A stretch of DNA of 64,000 bases, taken from contig JBGARZ010000018.1 in assembly GCA_044229975.1 (NCBI GenBank), forward strand, positions 64,001-128,000, written 5' to 3'. This DNA comes from Polyangiales bacterium (lineage in GTDB: Bacteria; Myxococcota_A; Polyangia; Polyangiales; Ga0077539). Below are positions 47,306-60,267 of this stretch, piece after piece. How positions within the stretch are numbered: the first letter of the stretch is position 1; each line of letters begins with the position of its first letter. The notes below the pieces were generated by a model. It had not been told where the DNA came from. It made no database searches and worked only from the letters and a program-made list of their open reading frames with translations. The position numbers and the translations under genes were made by a program.

Positions 47306-48268
47306 ATGTCACCCCCCACACGGACCAACCTGCGCAAGGTCCAGCCCTTCCTGCTGCCCCACGGGATCGCCCAGGCCCTGGAAGCAACCGCCCGCGCGAT
47401 GGCGTCGCCCATGATGCCGCACGTCAGCCTGGCGGCGGCTGCGCGTGAGCTCATCGACAAGGGCCTCGTCTCGCTCGACGCGCTGCTGCAGTCCGGTCGG
47501 GAGGTGGTCTGGGAGGCCGTCGACCCGCCGCGCGGTGCACGTCGGCGCGAGGCTGCATCGTCGAGCGACACGCGGGTGCGCGACGACACCTACGTCCAGG
47601 TCTCGCCGCTCGCGCTCTCGGAGGAGATCATCGAGCGCCTGGAAGACGTGCGACGACGCCTCTCCGCGGCGAAGGGCACGAAGGTCTCGACGGTGAAGGC
47701 GCTGCGCGAGTCGCTGGTCCGGGGCCTCGCCGCGCGGGAGCAGGCCCACGCGGGCGTCGAGGCTCTGCTCCTGAAGTACCCGCGGGAGTTCGGCGCGCTC
47801 GGCTTCGGCTCGGCGGCACAGGTCACCGTGGTCGCATCGGGCGTGACTCAGCGCTACGCCCAGCCCGCGGGGAAGGCCAATCCGTGGGGCCGCCCAACTC
47901 GCGCGGCTTCCAAGCGCAAGGCGACCCCTGCCCCCAAGGTCGCCACGAGGTCGACGACGACGGCGCGCCCCCGGTCACGCGGTCATCACCAACAAGCCGC
48001 CGTCCGCAAGGTGCCGTCTGGAGACGATGACGATGGCGGAGGCGACGGTGAACCACCACCCGCGCGGCGACCGCCCGCACAGGCCCCCACAACTGAGACA
48101 GCGAGCATCGCGAGCGCGACGCCGCCCGCGCGAGAGCCTCGGCTGGCGGATCTGGCGTGGCGGGCGAAGGCCCAGAGCGCCCTGGCTCGGCTCTTCCTGG
48201 CCACTGTCGGCCGACCGCAGCAACAGCCTCTTCGAGGCCCCGTGACCCCAGACCGAGGCAGGCAATGA
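47306..48268 (+). CDS. Putative tandem ribbon-helix-helix DNA-binding protein
   Basis: Two strand-helix-helix patterns (QPFLLPHGIAQALE..SLAAAARELIDKGL; PLALSEEIIERLE..STVKALRESLVRGL). Stop overlaps the integrase ATG. Confidence 0.55.
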   Translation: MSPPTRTNLRKVQPFLLPHGIAQALEATARAMASPMMPHVSLAAAARELIDKGLVSLDALLQSGREVVWEAVDPPRGARRREAASSSDTRVRDDTYVQVSPLALSEEIIERLEDVRRRLSAAKGTKVSTVKALRESLVRGLAAREQAHAGVEALLLKYPREFGALGFGSAAQVTVVASGVTQRYAQPAGKANPWGRPTRAASKRKATPAPKVATRSTTTARPRSRGHHQQAAVRKVPSGDDDDGGGDGEPPPARRPPAQAPTTETASIASATPPAREPRLADLAWRAKAQSALARLFLATVGRPQQQPLRGPVTPDRGRQ

Positions 48269-49863
48269 AGGTGGCGATCTACGTCCGCGTCTCGACCGAC
48301 GAGCAGGCCCACAGCGCGGGGGCCCAGGAGGCCGGCGCGAGGGCCTGGGCCGAGGCACGTAGGCACACCGTCGTCGCCGTGTACCGCGACATCGGCCAGT
48401 CGGGCGCCGAGTGGGTGCGCCGACGCGGCATCCTCGACGTGCAGCTCGACGTCACCCGTACGCCGCGACCGTGGGACGCGCTCGTCGTCCGCGATCTCGA
48501 CCGCCTCGGACGCGACCAGGTCCGACTGCCCCTGCTGCTCTCCACCCTGGGTGACCACGATGCGAAGGTCATCGAGTGGTCCGTCGATCGCGTCGTCGAG
48601 CTCGACGCGGTGGGAATGATGATCGCGTCCATGCGCTCGGGCATCGCGGCGATCGAGCGGGAGAACATCGCCCACCGCACGCGCACCGCGCTCCGCCAGA
48701 AGGCCGAGCGCGGCCTGAACGTCGGCGGCATCGCCTACGGCTACCGCCACGTCCGGTCCCCAGACGGGGTGCGCGACGTCATCGACGAGGTCGAGGCCGG
48801 GGTGGTGCGCGAGGTGTTCGAGCGCGCCGCGAGCGGCCAGAGCGTACGCGTCATCGCCCACGACCTGAACCTTCGGGGCGTCCCCTCCCCTCGCGCCGGC
48901 AAGCGCGGCACCGGCACCTGGGCGCCGTCGGCGCTCTGGGTGATCGTACGCAACCCGCGCTACCGGGGGTTGATCGTGTGGGGCGCGGTCGGGTCGAAGT
49001 ACAAGGGTGGCTCTCGAGTCACGATCGACCGGCCGGACGCCGTGGAAAGGGTCGATCCCTCCCTCGCCATCGTGAGCACCGACCTGTGGCAGCGAGCGCA
49101 GTCGGAGGCTGACCCTGCACGGGTCGCCGCCGGGCGAGCGATCAAGCGCGGCGCCACGCCGAGGCATCTGCTGATTGGGCTCGCCGTCTGTGATCGGTGC
49201 GGCGGCCCCATTGGAAGCGCGCGACAACTGGCTGGCGGCGTGAGCGTTCCGGCGTACTGCTGCCTCTGGCACCGCGACCGCGGCGACGCGGTCTGCCCGG
49301 TGGGCTTCTGCCGCGTCGCGGAGCGGCTCGACCGGGTTCTGCTCGACTGGCTCGTCACGGAGGTACTGGACGCCGAGCTGATCGCCGGAGCGGTCGCCGA
49401 AGCCCGCCGGATGGCGCTTGCGACGGAGCCCGATACTCGCCTCGAACAACTGCGCGCCGAGGAGCGGGAGCACGTGCTGGCAGTGTCGCGCCTCACGACC
49501 GCCATCGAGATCGGGGCGGGCGAGGTATCGGAGATCGCCACCCGGCTGGCCCAGCGCTCGAAGCAGTTGGCAGAGGTGCGGTCAGCCCTGGCCCGTGAGA
49601 CCATGACGTCGTCGGAGATTCCGATCGACCTCGAGGCCCGGTTGGGCGCGGCAGCTAGAAATGTGAGGGAGGTGATGACGGCTGAGCCCGCCCAGGCGCG
49701 TGGAGTCCTGGAAGCCGTTCTCGTCGGCCGCGTGCGAGTGTCGCAGCCGGTGAAGCGCGGTCCCGTATGGCTGACTGCCGAAGCAGTCCCCGGGATGCTG
49801 CTCGCCTCTCAGGAGCAGCACCCCGGGCATACGGGGTATGTGGGTGACCCTAACGGGATTTGA
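48265..49863 (+). CDS. Large serine recombinase (integrase)
   Basis: YVRVST catalytic motif, DLDRLGR, YGY recombinase domain, LLIGLAVCDRCG...YCC...C zinc ribbon, coiled coil. Confidence 0.95.
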   Translation: MKVAIYVRVSTDEQAHSAGAQEAGARAWAEARRHTVVAVYRDIGQSGAEWVRRRGILDVQLDVTRTPRPWDALVVRDLDRLGRDQVRLPLLLSTLGDHDAKVIEWSVDRVVELDAVGMMIASMRSGIAAIERENIAHRTRTALRQKAERGLNVGGIAYGYRHVRSPDGVRDVIDEVEAGVVREVFERAASGQSVRVIAHDLNLRGVPSPRAGKRGTGTWAPSALWVIVRNPRYRGLIVWGAVGSKYKGGSRVTIDRPDAVERVDPSLAIVSTDLWQRAQSEADPARVAAGRAIKRGATPRHLLIGLAVCDRCGGPIGSARQLAGGVSVPAYCCLWHRDRGDAVCPVGFCRVAERLDRVLLDWLVTEVLDAELIAGAVAEARRMALATEPDTRLEQLRAEEREHVLAVSRLTTAIEIGAGEVSEIATRLAQRSKQLAEVRSALARETMTSSEIPIDLEARLGAAARNVREVMTAEPAQARGVLEAVLVGRVRVSQPVKRGPVWLTAEAVPGMLLASQEQHPGHTGYVGDPNGI

Positions 49864-55760: not shown

Positions 55761-56819
55761 TCAACCGAGGGTCGAGTCACCCAGGGTCAGCACCGGTCCC
55801 GCGAGCGGCAGCTCCAGGGTGAAGCGCGTGCCCTCCGCGCCCGTGTCGACGGTCATCGTTCCCTGGTGTTCGGTGACGATGCGGTACGCGATGGCGAGCC
55901 CGAGGCCGGTACCCCCGCGGCCCTGTCGCGTCGTCACGTAGGGCTCGTAGAGCCGCGCCATCACCGACTCCGCGATGCCCGCACCGTTGTCGGCGACGGT
56001 GATCTTGATGGTGCGCTCGCCGGGATACTGCGCTGCGACCTTCACCCACCCGGCGCCTCGCGAAGGGTCGTGGGTCGCGCGCTCCTCGGCGGCGAAGACC
56101 GCGTTGCCCACGAGGTTGATGAGCACCTGCGTGATCTGGTCTCGATCGGCGCGAAGCGACGGCAGATCGTCGGGCGCGTCGCACGTCACGGTCGCCGACG
56201 ACGATCGGTGGAGGTCCGTCGCGTGGTGCAGCAGCTCGGCGACGTCGACGGGCTCGGGTCGCGGCCGGGGCATGCGTGCAAACTGCGAAAACGCGTCGAG
56301 CAACCGACGCAGCCGCTCGACCTCTTCGAGCACGATGCCTGTCTCCTCGTCGAACAGTCGTTCGAAGAGGTCGCGGTCGCGGGCGCGAGCCTTGCGAAGG
56401 TTCTCGACGCCGAGGCGGATGGGCGTGAGCGGGTTCTTGATCTCGTGGGCCATCTGCCGCGCGATGTCCCTCCAGGCCGCGAGGCGCTCGGCGCGGCGCG
56501 AACGCTTCTCCGCGACAGCGAGCGCGTCGGTCATGCGGTTGAAGGCGACCACGAGGCGTTGTGAGTCGGCGTCGCCGTCGTCGTCGAGGGCGACGTGCAC
56601 GCGCCGCTCGCCCTGGGCCACGCGCTCGGCGGCCTCGGCGAAGGGCGCGAGCGCGGAGGGTCGGCGACGGAAGAGCACCCACGCGAGGGCGAGCACGCAG
56701 ACGAGCGAACCCGCGAAGGCGGGCAGCACGTAGCCGCCCTCCAGCGTCGCGATGAACACCGCCCCCACCGCCGGCAGGATGGCGATGGCCAGCGCGAGGG
56801 CGCGTCCGCTCGCCGTCAC
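55761..56819 (-). CDS. NtrY-like sensor histidine kinase (2 TM, HAMP, HisKA, HATPase)
   Basis: AWRDIARQMAHEIKNPLTPI, NLVGNA, DNGAGI, GTGLGL. Confidence 0.92.
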   Translation of the reverse strand: MTASGRALALAIAILPAVGAVFIATLEGGYVLPAFAGSLVCVLALAWVLFRRRPSALAPFAEAAERVAQGERRVHVALDDDGDADSQRLVVAFNRMTDALAVAEKRSRRAERLAAWRDIARQMAHEIKNPLTPIRLGVENLRKARARDRDLFERLFDEETGIVLEEVERLRRLLDAFSQFARMPRPRPEPVDVAELLHHATDLHRSSSATVTCDAPDDLPSLRADRDQITQVLINLVGNAVFAAEERATHDPSRGAGWVKVAAQYPGERTIKITVADNGAGIAESVMARLYEPYVTTRQGRGGTGLGLAIAYRIVTEHQGTMTVDTGAEGTRFTLELPLAGPVLTLGDSTLG

Positions 56820-58306
56820 TTCTTGTAGAGGACTTCGAGGATGGCGGTGCGGCGCGAGGCGTTCTCGTCGAAGGTTACGACCTCGTCGTTGGCGAGCGAC
56901 TCGTGGCCGTGGGCGCGCGCGTAGATGTAGTCGTTGCCCGGGTCGGGCTCGGGCTTGTTCCAGCAGACCTTGAGCGCGAGCTCGGGCACGCCGAGGGCGA
57001 GCTCTTCGAGAATGATGTACCCGCGGTCGGCGGTGTTGTTGTGGTGGTAGTAGGCGCCGCGCAGGGAGGAGTAGTTCATGCTCTTGAGCGCGCCGTTGTG
57101 GCGGGTGAACTTCTTGCCCTTCTCGTCGACCGCGGTGTTGTCACCGGAGTCCGCCCAGCACGGCGTGTGATAGATGCCCAGGCCGAAGGTGCGGCCCGTG
57201 ACGTGAACGCCCTTGGGGAGGTTCTTCGGCAGCACGAGGCCCGACTTGAGGACGCCCATGAGGTTCTCGGTCCGGGTGCCGTGCCAGCCCCAGGTGATGC
57301 CGGTGGCCTTCGGCTTCTTGGTGATGGTCGCGGCGTAGTTGTCGAAGAGCGACTTGCGTCCCTGCTGCTCGACCTTCCAGATGCGGCCGACCTTGAGCAG
57401 GTTGTAGAAGTTGGAGTTCTTCGGCGACTGGCCCTTGGAGAAGAGCTTCTCGATGAGCTTGTACTCGTCGCTCTTCGGGTCGATGTGCCCGATGTCGCAT
57501 TTGAGACCGTCGTACCAGACCTCCGTCGGGTCATCGACCTCGGCGGCCTTCGAGAACACGTCGCGCTGGAGGAAGGCGTCCCTCAGCAGCGTGATGAACT
57601 TCCGCTGCTCGTTGATGCGCTCTTCGGAGTTGATGACGATGGCGTCGAGGTCGAGCTTCCCCTTCTTGCGCGCGCCGTCGATGTTGCGCGGGATGTTGGA
57701 GAGGTACTCGTTGGTGAGCTCGATGTAGTCGTTCTTGGTGGCCTTGGTGGTGCCCTTCACCATCGACTCGGCCTGCTGGAGAAGGTCGGCGCCCTTGTCC
57801 AACTGGCGGTCGGAGAGGTTGCCCAGCGGCGACTCCTTGGTCGCGCCCGCCGACGACGAGAGACCCGCCGCGACGGCCTGCCCGGTCGCCCCGTAGAGGA
57901 GCTTCAGCAGCGACTCCACCTCGGGGTGAAACTCCCTCGTCCGCACGGTCTTCGCCTTCGGCTGCGATGGGTCCGCGGCGGGCTCGGCGGTCTTCGCGGA
58001 GGTCTTGGCCTTCTCCTCGTCGAGCGACCGCATGTCGAGCTTCGTGTAGCCCTTGGCGACCTTCTCGTTGACCTTCTTGTTGAGGGCAGACTTCGCGGCC
58101 ACGAGCGTCGACGCCGTGACCTCCTGGGTCTGCCCGGCCTGCCCCACGCGCCCGTAGGTGAAGATCACCCGGAAGGTGCCGCCCTCGTCGAAGATCTGCG
58201 CCTTGTAGAACTTGTTGGACCCCAGGGACGTCGCCCCGGTCTTCTTCCCGGTGAGGTCGGTCCAGTTGAGGGTGACCTCTTCGACCAGTGTTCCTGTGCT
58301 GCTCAT
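56816..58306 (-). CDS. PARP-family ADP-ribosyltransferase (WGR + helical regulatory + catalytic domains)
   Basis: SNKFY...YGRVG (WGR); PLGNLS.RQL and LTNEYLSNIP (helical domain); WHGTR..N...LK.GL, G.TFG.GIY, KSMNY, LEELALG, NDEVV (H-Y-E triad). Confidence 0.9.
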   Translation of the reverse strand: MSSTGTLVEEVTLNWTDLTGKKTGATSLGSNKFYKAQIFDEGGTFRVIFTYGRVGQAGQTQEVTASTLVAAKSALNKKVNEKVAKGYTKLDMRSLDEEKAKTSAKTAEPAADPSQPKAKTVRTREFHPEVESLLKLLYGATGQAVAAGLSSSAGATKESPLGNLSDRQLDKGADLLQQAESMVKGTTKATKNDYIELTNEYLSNIPRNIDGARKKGKLDLDAIVINSEERINEQRKFITLLRDAFLQRDVFSKAAEVDDPTEVWYDGLKCDIGHIDPKSDEYKLIEKLFSKGQSPKNSNFYNLLKVGRIWKVEQQGRKSLFDNYAATITKKPKATGITWGWHGTRTENLMGVLKSGLVLPKNLPKGVHVTGRTFGLGIYHTPCWADSGDNTAVDEKGKKFTRHNGALKSMNYSSLRGAYYHHNNTADRGYIILEELALGVPELALKVCWNKPEPDPGNDYIYARAHGHESLANDEVVTFDENASRRTAILEVLYKK

Positions 58307-58395
58307 CCGATGGCGCTCCGACGTAGAGGGTTTCAGGGAAAGGGGCTGAGTTGAGGCGGACGGGGATACCACCGGGACGGCATCGGATGCGAGGC

Positions 58396-58465
58396 GGGGA
58401 CGGTCTCAGCTTTTCACCCTTGGACGTTGCCTGACCCCTGAAGGTGAAAAGCTGAGTCCGTCCCC
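58396..58465. repeat. 23-bp inverted repeat (1 mismatch) with 24-nt loop
   Basis: GGGGACGGTCTCAGCTTTTCACC / GGTGAAAAGCTGAGTCCGTCCCC, read directly. Confidence 0.9.
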
Positions 58466-58668
58466 ACCCGCCTGCGCCGACGCGTCGGCGTAGGCCCGGG
58501 AGGACATCGCGCCAGAGCGGGGAAAGTGCCGCGACCGTCGCGCTTCGTTGACACCGGCCGGTGAAGTTGGAGAGACTCCCGTCCGAAGAAACCACCGTAA
58601 TTCCTGCGGCGGTATCGAAGTCTTCGCGGGCGCTCCAAGGGGCGGGCCCGCGGAGGGGTTGAAGGGCG

Positions 58669-60267
58669 ATGCTGAAGCTCGTGATCTCCGACGACGAGGG
58701 CAAGACGATGGTCATCCCGCTCACCCGGGATGAGCTCACCATCGGTCGCAAGGACGGAAACTCCATCCGCCTCACCGAGCGCAACGTCTCCCGACGCCAC
58801 GCGCGCATCGTGAAGCGTTCGGAGGGCTTCTTCCTCGAAGACCTCGCCAGCTACAACGGCATCGTCATCAACGGCGCACGCCTCGCCGAGCCGAAGCCGA
58901 TGCGCGGCGGCGACCAGATCCTCATCGGCGACTACAAGCTCCAGGTCGTCGAAGAGGCGGGTGCCCAGCCCACGCCTCCGCCGCCTGCGCCGCCGCCCGT
59001 CGCCTCCGAACACGCGGCCCCGCTCCTCGCCGCCACGCCGAGCACCAACCCGGGCAGCGCGCCGGGCCTCGCCGCCCTCAATGACCCGCTCGCGCCTGCG
59101 TCGACTGCCAGCGCGCCGGTGCCCGAGAGCATCAAGGGCATGCGCGTGGTGTTTCTCGCGCCCGCCGGCGTGCCCGCCCCGGTGTTGCTCGACCGCCTCC
59201 CGATGATCCTCGGGCGCAGCGAGTCGGCCGACATCGCGCTCGCGTTCAGCTCCATCTCGCGTGAGCACGCGCGGCTCTTCTGCGAGGACGACAAGCTCTT
59301 CATCGAGGACATGGGGAGCTCCAACGGCATCCAGATCAACGGCGAGAAGTGCCGCAAGGGGGAGCTCTCCCCCGGCGACATGGTGCAGCTCGGGGTCGTG
59401 GAGTTCCGCGTCGCTCGCCGCGGTGACAGCACCGTGGTCATCCAGCGCGCGGCCGCCGACGAGCGCGCCGCCGCGGGCCGATCGAACAAGGGCCTCATCG
59501 CGGGCGTGGTGTTCGGCGGCGTGTGCCTCGGGCTCCTGGTGCTCTTCATCGCGACGCACCGCACGGGTCCGTCGCCGGTCAATCCGCAGCCCGATCCCCC
59601 GACGGCCTCGGCCGCCGCGACGCCCACCGCCCCGACGCCTCCAACGACGCCGGTTGCTCCCCCACCGACCCCGGTCGCGCCCGCCGCCACCCCCGAGTCT
59701 GTGCCCGCCGTGGTCGCTGCTGCGGCTCCCGAAGCGGGTGTTGCGCCTGCGCCCGCCGCAGCTGTTGTTGCGCCGCCCACCGCACCGACCCCGGAGGTCG
59801 TTCCTGCCGCGCCTGCGGTGGTGCCTGCGCCGCCCGCTGTCGTCGAGCCCACGCCCCCGGTGAACCAGGTCGTCGAGACGGCCCACGATCGCCGCGATCA
59901 CCGCCACCCGACCACCACCCCCGCCGCGACCCCACGCGCCGCGGCGACGCCTCGCCCCGTCACCGCACCGGCCCCCGCGCCCGCGCCAACCCCGGCGCCC
60001 GCGGGTGACCCCGGCGCTTCGCCGATGGACCAGGCGCGCGCCTGCCTCCGCTCTTCGGAGAACATGAACGCCGGCAACCAGTGCGTTGTCAACGTGCTGC
60101 GCGGCCGCGCCAACAGCGAGTCCGAGGTGGGCCTGCTCTGCACGACCTACCGCACCATGAGCCGCACGAGCGACGCGGTGCGCTGCATGCGCAACTACAT
60201 CCAGCGCTTCCCCTCCGGCGCGCGCGTCCCGTCCTTCCAGCAGTACATCGACGGCAACAGCCAGTAG
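58669..60267 (+). CDS. Tandem-FHA membrane protein with Pro/Ala linker and TPR-like C-terminus
   Basis: Two FHA signatures (IGR..SRRHA..DL.SYNG; LGR..SREHA..DMGSSNG), TM helix, Pro-rich stalk. Confidence 0.9.
   Translation: MLKLVISDDEGKTMVIPLTRDELTIGRKDGNSIRLTERNVSRRHARIVKRSEGFFLEDLASYNGIVINGARLAEPKPMRGGDQILIGDYKLQVVEEAGAQPTPPPPAPPPVASEHAAPLLAATPSTNPGSAPGLAALNDPLAPASTASAPVPESIKGMRVVFLAPAGVPAPVLLDRLPMILGRSESADIALAFSSISREHARLFCEDDKLFIEDMGSSNGIQINGEKCRKGELSPGDMVQLGVVEFRVARRGDSTVVIQRAAADERAAAGRSNKGLIAGVVFGGVCLGLLVLFIATHRTGPSPVNPQPDPPTASAAATPTAPTPPTTPVAPPPTPVAPAATPESVPAVVAAAAPEAGVAPAPAAAVVAPPTAPTPEVVPAAPAVVPAPPAVVEPTPPVNQVVETAHDRRDHRHPTTTPAATPRAAATPRPVTAPAPAPAPTPAPAGDPGASPMDQARACLRSSENMNAGNQCVVNVLRGRANSESEVGLLCTTYRTMSRTSDAVRCMRNYIQRFPSGARVPSFQQYIDGNSQ

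Follow-up and report, generated by a model that had tools for sequence, protein, structure and literature searches.

A myxobacterial PARP and its predicted DNA-binding partner: a candidate ADP-ribosylation module with DNA-repair neighbours

What does a complete, eukaryote-like PARP do in a bacterium, and with what does it work? The question is raised by one gene, here called PARP-B, in a 64,000-nucleotide stretch of Polyangiales bacterium DNA (assembly GCA_044229975.1, contig JBGARZ010000018.1, positions 64,001 to 128,000; hereafter the window). A sequence-only reading had proposed that PARP-B is a PARP2/3-type enzyme set among core genes, and that it acts as a DNA-break-activated switch in damage response or anti-phage defence. 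The enzyme itself belongs to a known kind. What is new is its association with a second protein, the partner, in a module that has repair genes as neighbours in relatives. The parts of PARP-B are as follows (positions are those of the window).

56816..58306, minus strand: PARP-B gene, 496 residues, WGR-helical-ADP-ribosyltransferase (ART) order, ATG start, no internal stop
58040..58228, minus strand: WGR DNA-sensor domain, residues 27-89, Pfam E 4e-15, with a YGR motif
57542..57928, minus strand: helical regulatory domain PARP_reg, residues 127-255, Pfam E 1e-12
57812-57829, minus strand: PLGNLS motif within PARP_reg, residues 160-165
56819..57472, minus strand: ART catalytic domain, with the Pfam PARP match at residues 279-389, E 4e-11
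57281-57283 (H342), 57170-57172 (Y379), 57083-57085 (K408) and 56882-56884 (E475), minus strand: catalytic-site codons; Y412 also belongs to the site
57086..57169, minus strand: residues 380-407 with a 22-residue insertion, clade-specific, modelled as a short hairpin with high confidence

A hidden Markov model search with WGR, PARP_reg and PARP returned all three domains in that order, each above its curated Pfam cut-off. PARP2, PARP1 and PARP3 were the PDB sequence matches, with PARP2 at the top (E 3.6e-16, covering residues 28-384). The AlphaFold model of PARP-B (predicted local distance difference test, pLDDT, 89) gave DNA-bound PARP1 and PARP2 as its best Foldseek matches (E ~1e-26 to 1e-24, best 2.5e-26; template modelling score 0.58-0.67). 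The full PARP2/3-type architecture read from the letters, the PLGNLS-bearing helical domain (HD) included, was thus upheld by domain, sequence and structure searches, and PARP-B is an intact, complete WGR-HD-ART PARP of the PARP1/2/3 type. In domain order, fold and residues it agrees with the clade 1 (DNA-dependent) PARPs.

PARP-B does not occur alone. In three genome sets (41 + 61 + 61, 163 genomes in total), full PARP-B and the partner were found in the same 15 of 41, the same 3 of 61 and the same 1 of 61 genomes. Both were thus present in 19 of the 163 genomes and both absent from 143 (the unpublished genome G445 among the latter), and no genome had full PARP-B but lacked a partner match. 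The partner was also present in 5 of 5 further PARP-B sources, three of them already counted. Many of the 163 genomes are incomplete and related, so that the co-occurrence is a pattern and not a statistical test. In the remaining genome (G008), PARP-B is cut to ~100 codons with stops at the locus of the FHA gene described below, and the partner is internally deleted at its unlinked pyrH locus; G006 has neither gene. This co-decay at unlinked loci is the least kin-dependent evidence for the link between PARP-B and its partner.

The partner orthologue of the window's own genome lies on another contig.

C16:19926-20591: partner gene, 222 residues, beside pyrH

No Pfam family and no PADLOC match was found for the partner, and an ESM Atlas search with it returned a single lead at 0.78, below threshold. 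Its model (pLDDT 86) joins an N-terminal winged helix to a C-terminal MraZ-like tandem AbrB fold. Comparison with 1n0e (MraZ) gave Z 7.7 and a root-mean-square deviation (rmsd) of 3.6 over 98 aligned residues (Foldseek E 0.013, probability 1.0), and comparison with 9ire (Fur-like winged helix) gave Z 7.4 and rmsd 3.1 over 71. Identity to the MraZ/AbrB and Fur-like structures is 8-24%. The partner may resemble these regulators in its predicted folds, but differs from them in carrying both in one chain and in having no Pfam match; from the model, it is predicted to be a DNA-binding protein. In other genera PARP-B is immediately preceded by the partner gene (~220 residues), an arrangement seen at 13 of 25 loci; in this genus and in Haliangiales the two are unlinked.

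Strict co-occurrence would also follow if PARP-B were a toxin neutralised by an AbrB-fold partner. The absence of any of the 163 genomes with full PARP-B and no partner match fits such a toxin-antitoxin pair, as does the occurrence of AbrB folds in antitoxins (PMC7824862). However, PARP-B has a helical autoinhibitory domain of its own, the two genes lie at separate loci in Haliangiales and in this genus, and a lone antitoxin could survive, yet in those genomes no partner was found without PARP-B. In G434, moreover, the partner copy is in two pieces while PARP-B is whole. We consider a toxin-antitoxin pair highly improbable.

The association was also observed in viral and metagenome sequences. 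A PARP match lay within 6 kb of viral partner homologues in 19 of 22 loci (two of the PARPs are fragments), many of them on contigs of 240-450 kb, and these viral partner-linked PARPs form a clade separate from PARP-B; none of 23 pattern matches in IMG/VR belonged to the PARP-B clade. The best 80 of 113 metagenome partner loci were added to the 22 viral ones, and the resulting 102 loci were clustered at 90% into 78 clusters. Where a cluster had 3 kb or more of sequence upstream, a PARP match accompanied the partner in 28 of 29 low-GC clusters and in 10 of 14 high-GC ones; the query alignment was seeded with PARP-linked copies and may favour PARP-linked matches. Across 35 loci, the distances among partners and those among PARPs are correlated (Spearman 0.45; 0/2000 permutations). 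Three-domain PARPs were also found on 20 large plasmids and in 5 annotated phages, where single-query searches gave no partner match; the partner therefore does not appear to be universal for PARPs.

The 20 PARP plasmids were typed as non-mobilizable, and 19 of them are at least 360 kb. One plasmid PARP adjoins a nucleotidyltransferase-SAVED pair, and another adjoins an RNA 2'-phosphotransferase and Ter genes (L103, L104). A 42% GC locus (L148:2-5660), probably phage or plasmid, carries, besides LigA, two genes that resemble the partner and a divergent PARP; thyA-like and HU-like genes lie nearby.

Which genes keep company with PARP-B and its partner in relatives? In four metagenome loci (L149, L150, L153 and L165) a tight operon runs ARH-LigA-PARP-B-partner, with Pfam confirmation for L150, and one protein of these loci is named Polyangiaceae. 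At L150 a Macro gene faces the run, and at L180 PARG lies upstream of PARP-B. ARH is beside or near the partner in G431, G432 and G435. In G432, G434, G456 and G466 the partner is divergent from LigA, which was a second LigA copy in the three genomes checked. These second-copy NAD-dependent ligases form a clade (L087:14997-16937; relatives of G434) with 64-73% identity to the query vs ~35% for housekeeping LigA. In the PARP-to-partner stretch of 13 phage loci, NADAR was found at 7 loci, a pyrimidine-dimer glycosylase at 4 and UvdE at 1, by scans of open reading frames (74 of 103 in one of the scans); 3 of 4 phage records have a LigA that lies 5-8 kb upstream. Glycosylase/lyases and UvdE create nicks, and ligase seals them. 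At L154:4079-4699 a DarT gene stands immediately downstream of a LigA-PARP-B-partner operon.

The same arrangements could be those of a transcription regulator: the partner would repress the PARP and ligase genes, and PARP-B would lift the repression upon damage, or the regulation would proceed without modification. Both predicted partner folds, Fur-like winged helix and MraZ, are typical of regulators, and the partner is divergent from ligA in the four genomes named above and first in the operon in 13 loci. In contrast, it comes last in the ARH-LigA-PARP operon and downstream of PARP in phages, and no operator motif was evident in one upstream alignment, of this genus only. Nor would one expect a generic regulator to accompany PARPs in both myxobacteria and phages. 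We regard this reading as unlikely.

The arrangement that we prefer, to which we give an even chance, is an ADP-ribosylation module that nicks would switch on and that would serve the repair of DNA breaks; the partner would be a cofactor or a substrate of PARP-B. By analogy with PARP1/2/3 and the Herpetosiphon PARP, (i) binding of WGR to nicked or broken DNA would relieve the helical domain and activate PARP-B; (ii) activated PARP-B would use NAD+ to ADP-ribosylate itself and the DNA-bound partner; (iii) the modified partner would be released from the damaged site, or would help to stage that site, for ligation; (iv) the ligase would seal the nick; and (v) erasers would reset the ADP-ribose mark. 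The Herpetosiphon enzyme (HaPARP) requires DNA for activity (PMC8120803). More broadly, and as a tentative extension, myxobacteria and jumbo phages might run PARP-dependent single-strand-break repair with a nick-activated PARP, a new family of winged-helix/MraZ-fold proteins that serve the PARP as cofactors or as histone-like substrates, erasers, and a NAD-dependent ligase in an accessory role.

The eukaryotic set for single-strand-break repair comprises PARP1/2, XRCC1-LIG3 and ARH3/PARG. The ARH-LigA-PARP-partner operon offers the same functions (sensor-writer, ligase and eraser), by analogy only. It differs in using NAD-dependent LigA instead of LIG3 and in a partner unrelated by fold, and no XRCC1 was seen, although none was sought. 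If the proposal is right, the module would correspond, in prokaryotes, to the PARP-XRCC1-LIG3-ARH3 axis and would provide the first in vivo target and function of a bacterial PARP, with a bearing on the roles of PARPs before, or outside, eukaryotic chromatin. The partner is a candidate target or cofactor backed by co-occurrence, by co-decay at unlinked loci and by co-divergence in bacteria and phages, and the compact four-gene operon offers a testable module.

Several observations weigh against a repair module of this kind. A second-copy LigA was found in 11 of 61 genomes, 8 of which (of the 11, G445 is one member) have no PARP-B. In the window's family the search gave no accessory ligase (14 of 15 other genomes have one LigA, at 33-38% identity, and one has none), and the window's own genome has no close orthologue of the operon ARH; the ligase link is therefore not universal. 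LigA as an obligate member of the module was accordingly discarded, given those 8 of 11 genomes and its absence from the window's family. The fold scores of the partner are middling (Z 7.7 and 7.4), with no Foldseek match at E <= 0.001. Loose clusters of DNA-metabolism genes are in any case usual in phages, and related genomes are not independent; the counts therefore overstate the link. Finally, the patchy spread outside the family (3/61 and 1/61 genomes in two genome sets) would also fit a conflict system.

In such a conflict system PARP-B would sense phage DNA ends and drain NAD+ or modify host or phage proteins, thereby aborting infection, and the phage copies would be counter-measures or takeover enzymes. 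Beyond the patchy distribution, the three-domain PARPs carried by 20 large plasmids and by 5 phages are consistent with it, as is a paralogue, PARP-C, which together with a Macro gene precedes a type XIII retron; phage PARPs have been proposed to modify host proteins (PMC7824862). Yet PADLOC 2.0 gives one weak WGR-only match (E 6e-4) for PARP-B and none for the partner. The window locus lies among core genes, identity among PARP-B proteins across families is high (58-90%), the PARP-B gene is retained after dispersal of the module, and ligases and glycosylases are the recurring neighbours. We hold a conflict system to be improbable. Of the two roles first suggested for PARP-B, the one in DNA damage thus gains support from the ligase, glycosylase and eraser neighbours in relatives, whereas anti-phage defence has little direct support.

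In a profile alignment, H342, Y379, K408, S409, Y412 and E475 line up with PARP2/PARP3 catalytic positions, E475 by an alignment that bridges a 30-residue gap and is not an atomic superposition. The H, Y, E and K predicted for the active site therefore do fall at catalytic positions; their PARP1 equivalents we take to be H862, Y896, E988 and K903. Over 169 PARP-B relatives, H342, Y379, S409, Y412 and E475 are conserved in all and K408 in 168; the WGR residues G52 and R53 are kept in 168, with a gap in one. Tyr replaces the Trp of the WGR motif in 162 of the 169, a substitution described as common among bacterial PARPs (PMC5966428).

PARP-B shares with human PARP2, PARP3 and the WGR-HD-ART part of PARP1 (PDB 9zqb, 6x0l, 3c49 and 7s6m) the domain order, the fold, the H-Y-E triad, the K/S/Y donor-site residues and the PLG motif. 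It differs from them in its low identity (~19% in structural alignment), in the 22-residue insertion between the catalytic Tyr and K408, in the loss of ~30 residues ahead of the catalytic Glu, in the acceptor side (PARP2 YMF and YNE are RTF and NDE), in having no N-terminal extension and in having a partner gene. PARP1/2-type acceptor-site residues and the pre-Glu segment are thus absent. These acceptor-side residues have a part in chain growth in PARP1, and because the region is altered, PARP-B might add mono- or short ADP-ribose instead of long chains. The PARP3-like catalytic sequence (SGGRVGKGIY, QSEY and a long pre-Glu segment) is lacking in PARP-B and present in a paralogue, PARP-A, so that by its catalytic sequence PARP-B does not appear to be a PARP3 orthologue.

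The window's own genome (10 Mb, 93% complete) holds three full PARPs: PARP-B on contig C24, the PARP3-like PARP-A on C11 and PARP-C on C38. No PARG, Macro, ARH or NADAR profile match was found on C24, in agreement with the earlier statement that the window has no macrodomain, PARG or ARH. The genome-wide search, however, gave PARG 1, Macro 6, ARH 4 and NADAR 1 above cut-off on other contigs, and PARP-B is not without erasers.

Outside the family, PARP-B directly follows PARP-A in 7 of 8 genomes examined, as a tandem operon in these seven. Within it, 13 of 15 PARP-B genomes also hold PARP-A elsewhere (the two without it are 64% and 80% complete), and PARP-A occurs without PARP-B in two family genomes. 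PARP-B as a recent duplicate of PARP-A was rejected, as A, B, C and the phage group each form a clade of their own, with 100% support and a long stem. The tree, a quick IQ-TREE run of 57 rows with 5 partial rows excluded, covers neither eukaryotic nor Herpetosiphon rows, and origin and direction of transfer are outside its scope. The catalytic domain of PARP-A (C11:407527-409080) is close to that of human PARP3, long pre-Glu segment included, and a transfer between eukaryote and bacterium is possible. A type XIII retron operon (C38:252552-260761; WGR/HEAT-ARM, SWIM and RT_XIII by PADLOC) begins with PARP-C and a Macro gene; PARP-C as a retron effector or a sensor of its msDNA (multicopy single-stranded DNA) is a separate lead. 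The partner also accompanies a C-type PARP in a partner-ARH-PARP-C operon at L171:142-3298 and L173:4977-8133.

Is PARP-B foreign to this genome? Its G+C content at third codon positions (GC3) is 0.96 vs a genome median of 0.91. Its Lys content, noted at the outset as marked, is indeed 9.9% vs 1.4-5.3% in three neighbours (genome 99th percentile 6.5%), but the mean over 169 orthologues is 10.2%, and Lys richness appears to be a family trait. Of 24 other family genomes, 14 have an orthologue (70-91% identity); one of these is broken by a frameshift and another spans two contigs. It is therefore wrong to picture PARP-B, as was implied, as a foreign orphan that lacks erasers: GC3 is native, Lys richness belongs to the family, orthologues occur in other family genomes, and the genome has erasers and two further full PARPs. 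A recent horizontal insertion was ruled out by GC3, the family-wide orthologues and the tree. A phylum-wide search found PARP-B in 6 of 401 genomes, with only 3 candidates scored per genome, and gives little information. Relatives of PARP-B carry myxobacterial names, and one (P0282) comes from a named species, Paraliomyxa miuraensis. RNA contigs from three libraries span much of the PARP-B gene in close relatives, but DNA carry-over is possible and they are no evidence of transcription.

How much of this was known? Surveys of bacterial PARPs listed 28 sequences in 2014 (PMC4245714) and 72 in 2018, Myxococcales included (Garcia-Saura 2018; PMC5966428). Table S1 of the latter holds two PARPs each from RIFOXYA12_FULL_58_15 and RIFOXYB12_FULL_58_9, in deltaproteobacterial clade 2.1. 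The PARP-B relative P0288 comes from RIFOXYA12_FULL_58_15, so the PARP-B clade was probably already catalogued there, in the accessible part without characterisation or gene context. The Herpetosiphon aurantiacus and Clostridioides difficile CD160 PARPs, compared by description only, share with PARP-B the WGR-PARP_reg-PARP order, H-Y-E and a PARG in the same genome (PMC5966428, PMC8120803). They are active in vitro, with target and function unknown, and neither a partner nor a link to ligase is described in the available text. In Table 1 of a 2021 review (PMC8120803), bacterial PARPs are entered without a known target or function. Jumbo-phage PARPs (Iyer 2021, PMC7824862; Iyer 2022, PMC9503650) likewise have three domains and occur in large phages, but they are proposed as host-modifying enzymes and form a separate clade in our tree; the terms 'wHTH', 'AbrB' and 'WGR' have 0 occurrences in the main text of PMC9503650. 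A PARP-partner-ligase module is not described in the accessible parts of a 2026 preprint (10.64898/2026.10.17.759577), a NADAR paper (PMC11125620) and a ligase review (PMC7470946). Our literature search, whose coverage leaves out most subscription journals, found no account of the partner or the ligase operon; the Iyer supplements could hold such neighbourhoods.

Three further features surround PARP-B in the window.

55761..56819, minus strand: histidine kinase (HisKA, HATPase_c), downstream; its GTG start overlaps the PARP-B stop by 4 bp
58669..60267, plus strand: double-FHA gene, divergent, a neighbour of PARP-B only in this genus
58374..58493, no strand: insertion of ~120 bp resembling a repetitive extragenic palindromic (REP) element, with 23-bp inverted arms at 58396-58418 and 58443-58465

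Could PARP-B serve these signalling genes instead? The 4-bp overlap with the kinase start and the order FHA-PARP-kinase-aspS, kept in 6 of 8 other genus members, would suit such coupling. However, outside the genus the FHA gene does not adjoin PARP-B, only 3 of 19 other loci have a similar kinase nearby, and G008 keeps both kinase and FHA genes though its PARP-B has decayed. We give coupling to the kinase or FHA gene the least credence of all the alternatives. A simple insertion of PARP-B between the FHA gene and the kinase did not survive the synteny check either: those three other-genus loci already have the similar kinase (53-58% identity), at a distance of 3.4-3.6 kb downstream.

The REP-like insertion in the PARP/FHA intergenic region is absent in 7 of 7 aligned relatives and has many copies elsewhere in its own genome. 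The palindrome was therefore dismissed as an operator, since copies recur throughout the genome and only this genome has one here. Elsewhere in the window (47306-49863), a serine recombinase (Resolvase, Recombinase and Zn ribbon) beside an uncharacterised open reading frame likely marks the edge of an integrated element.

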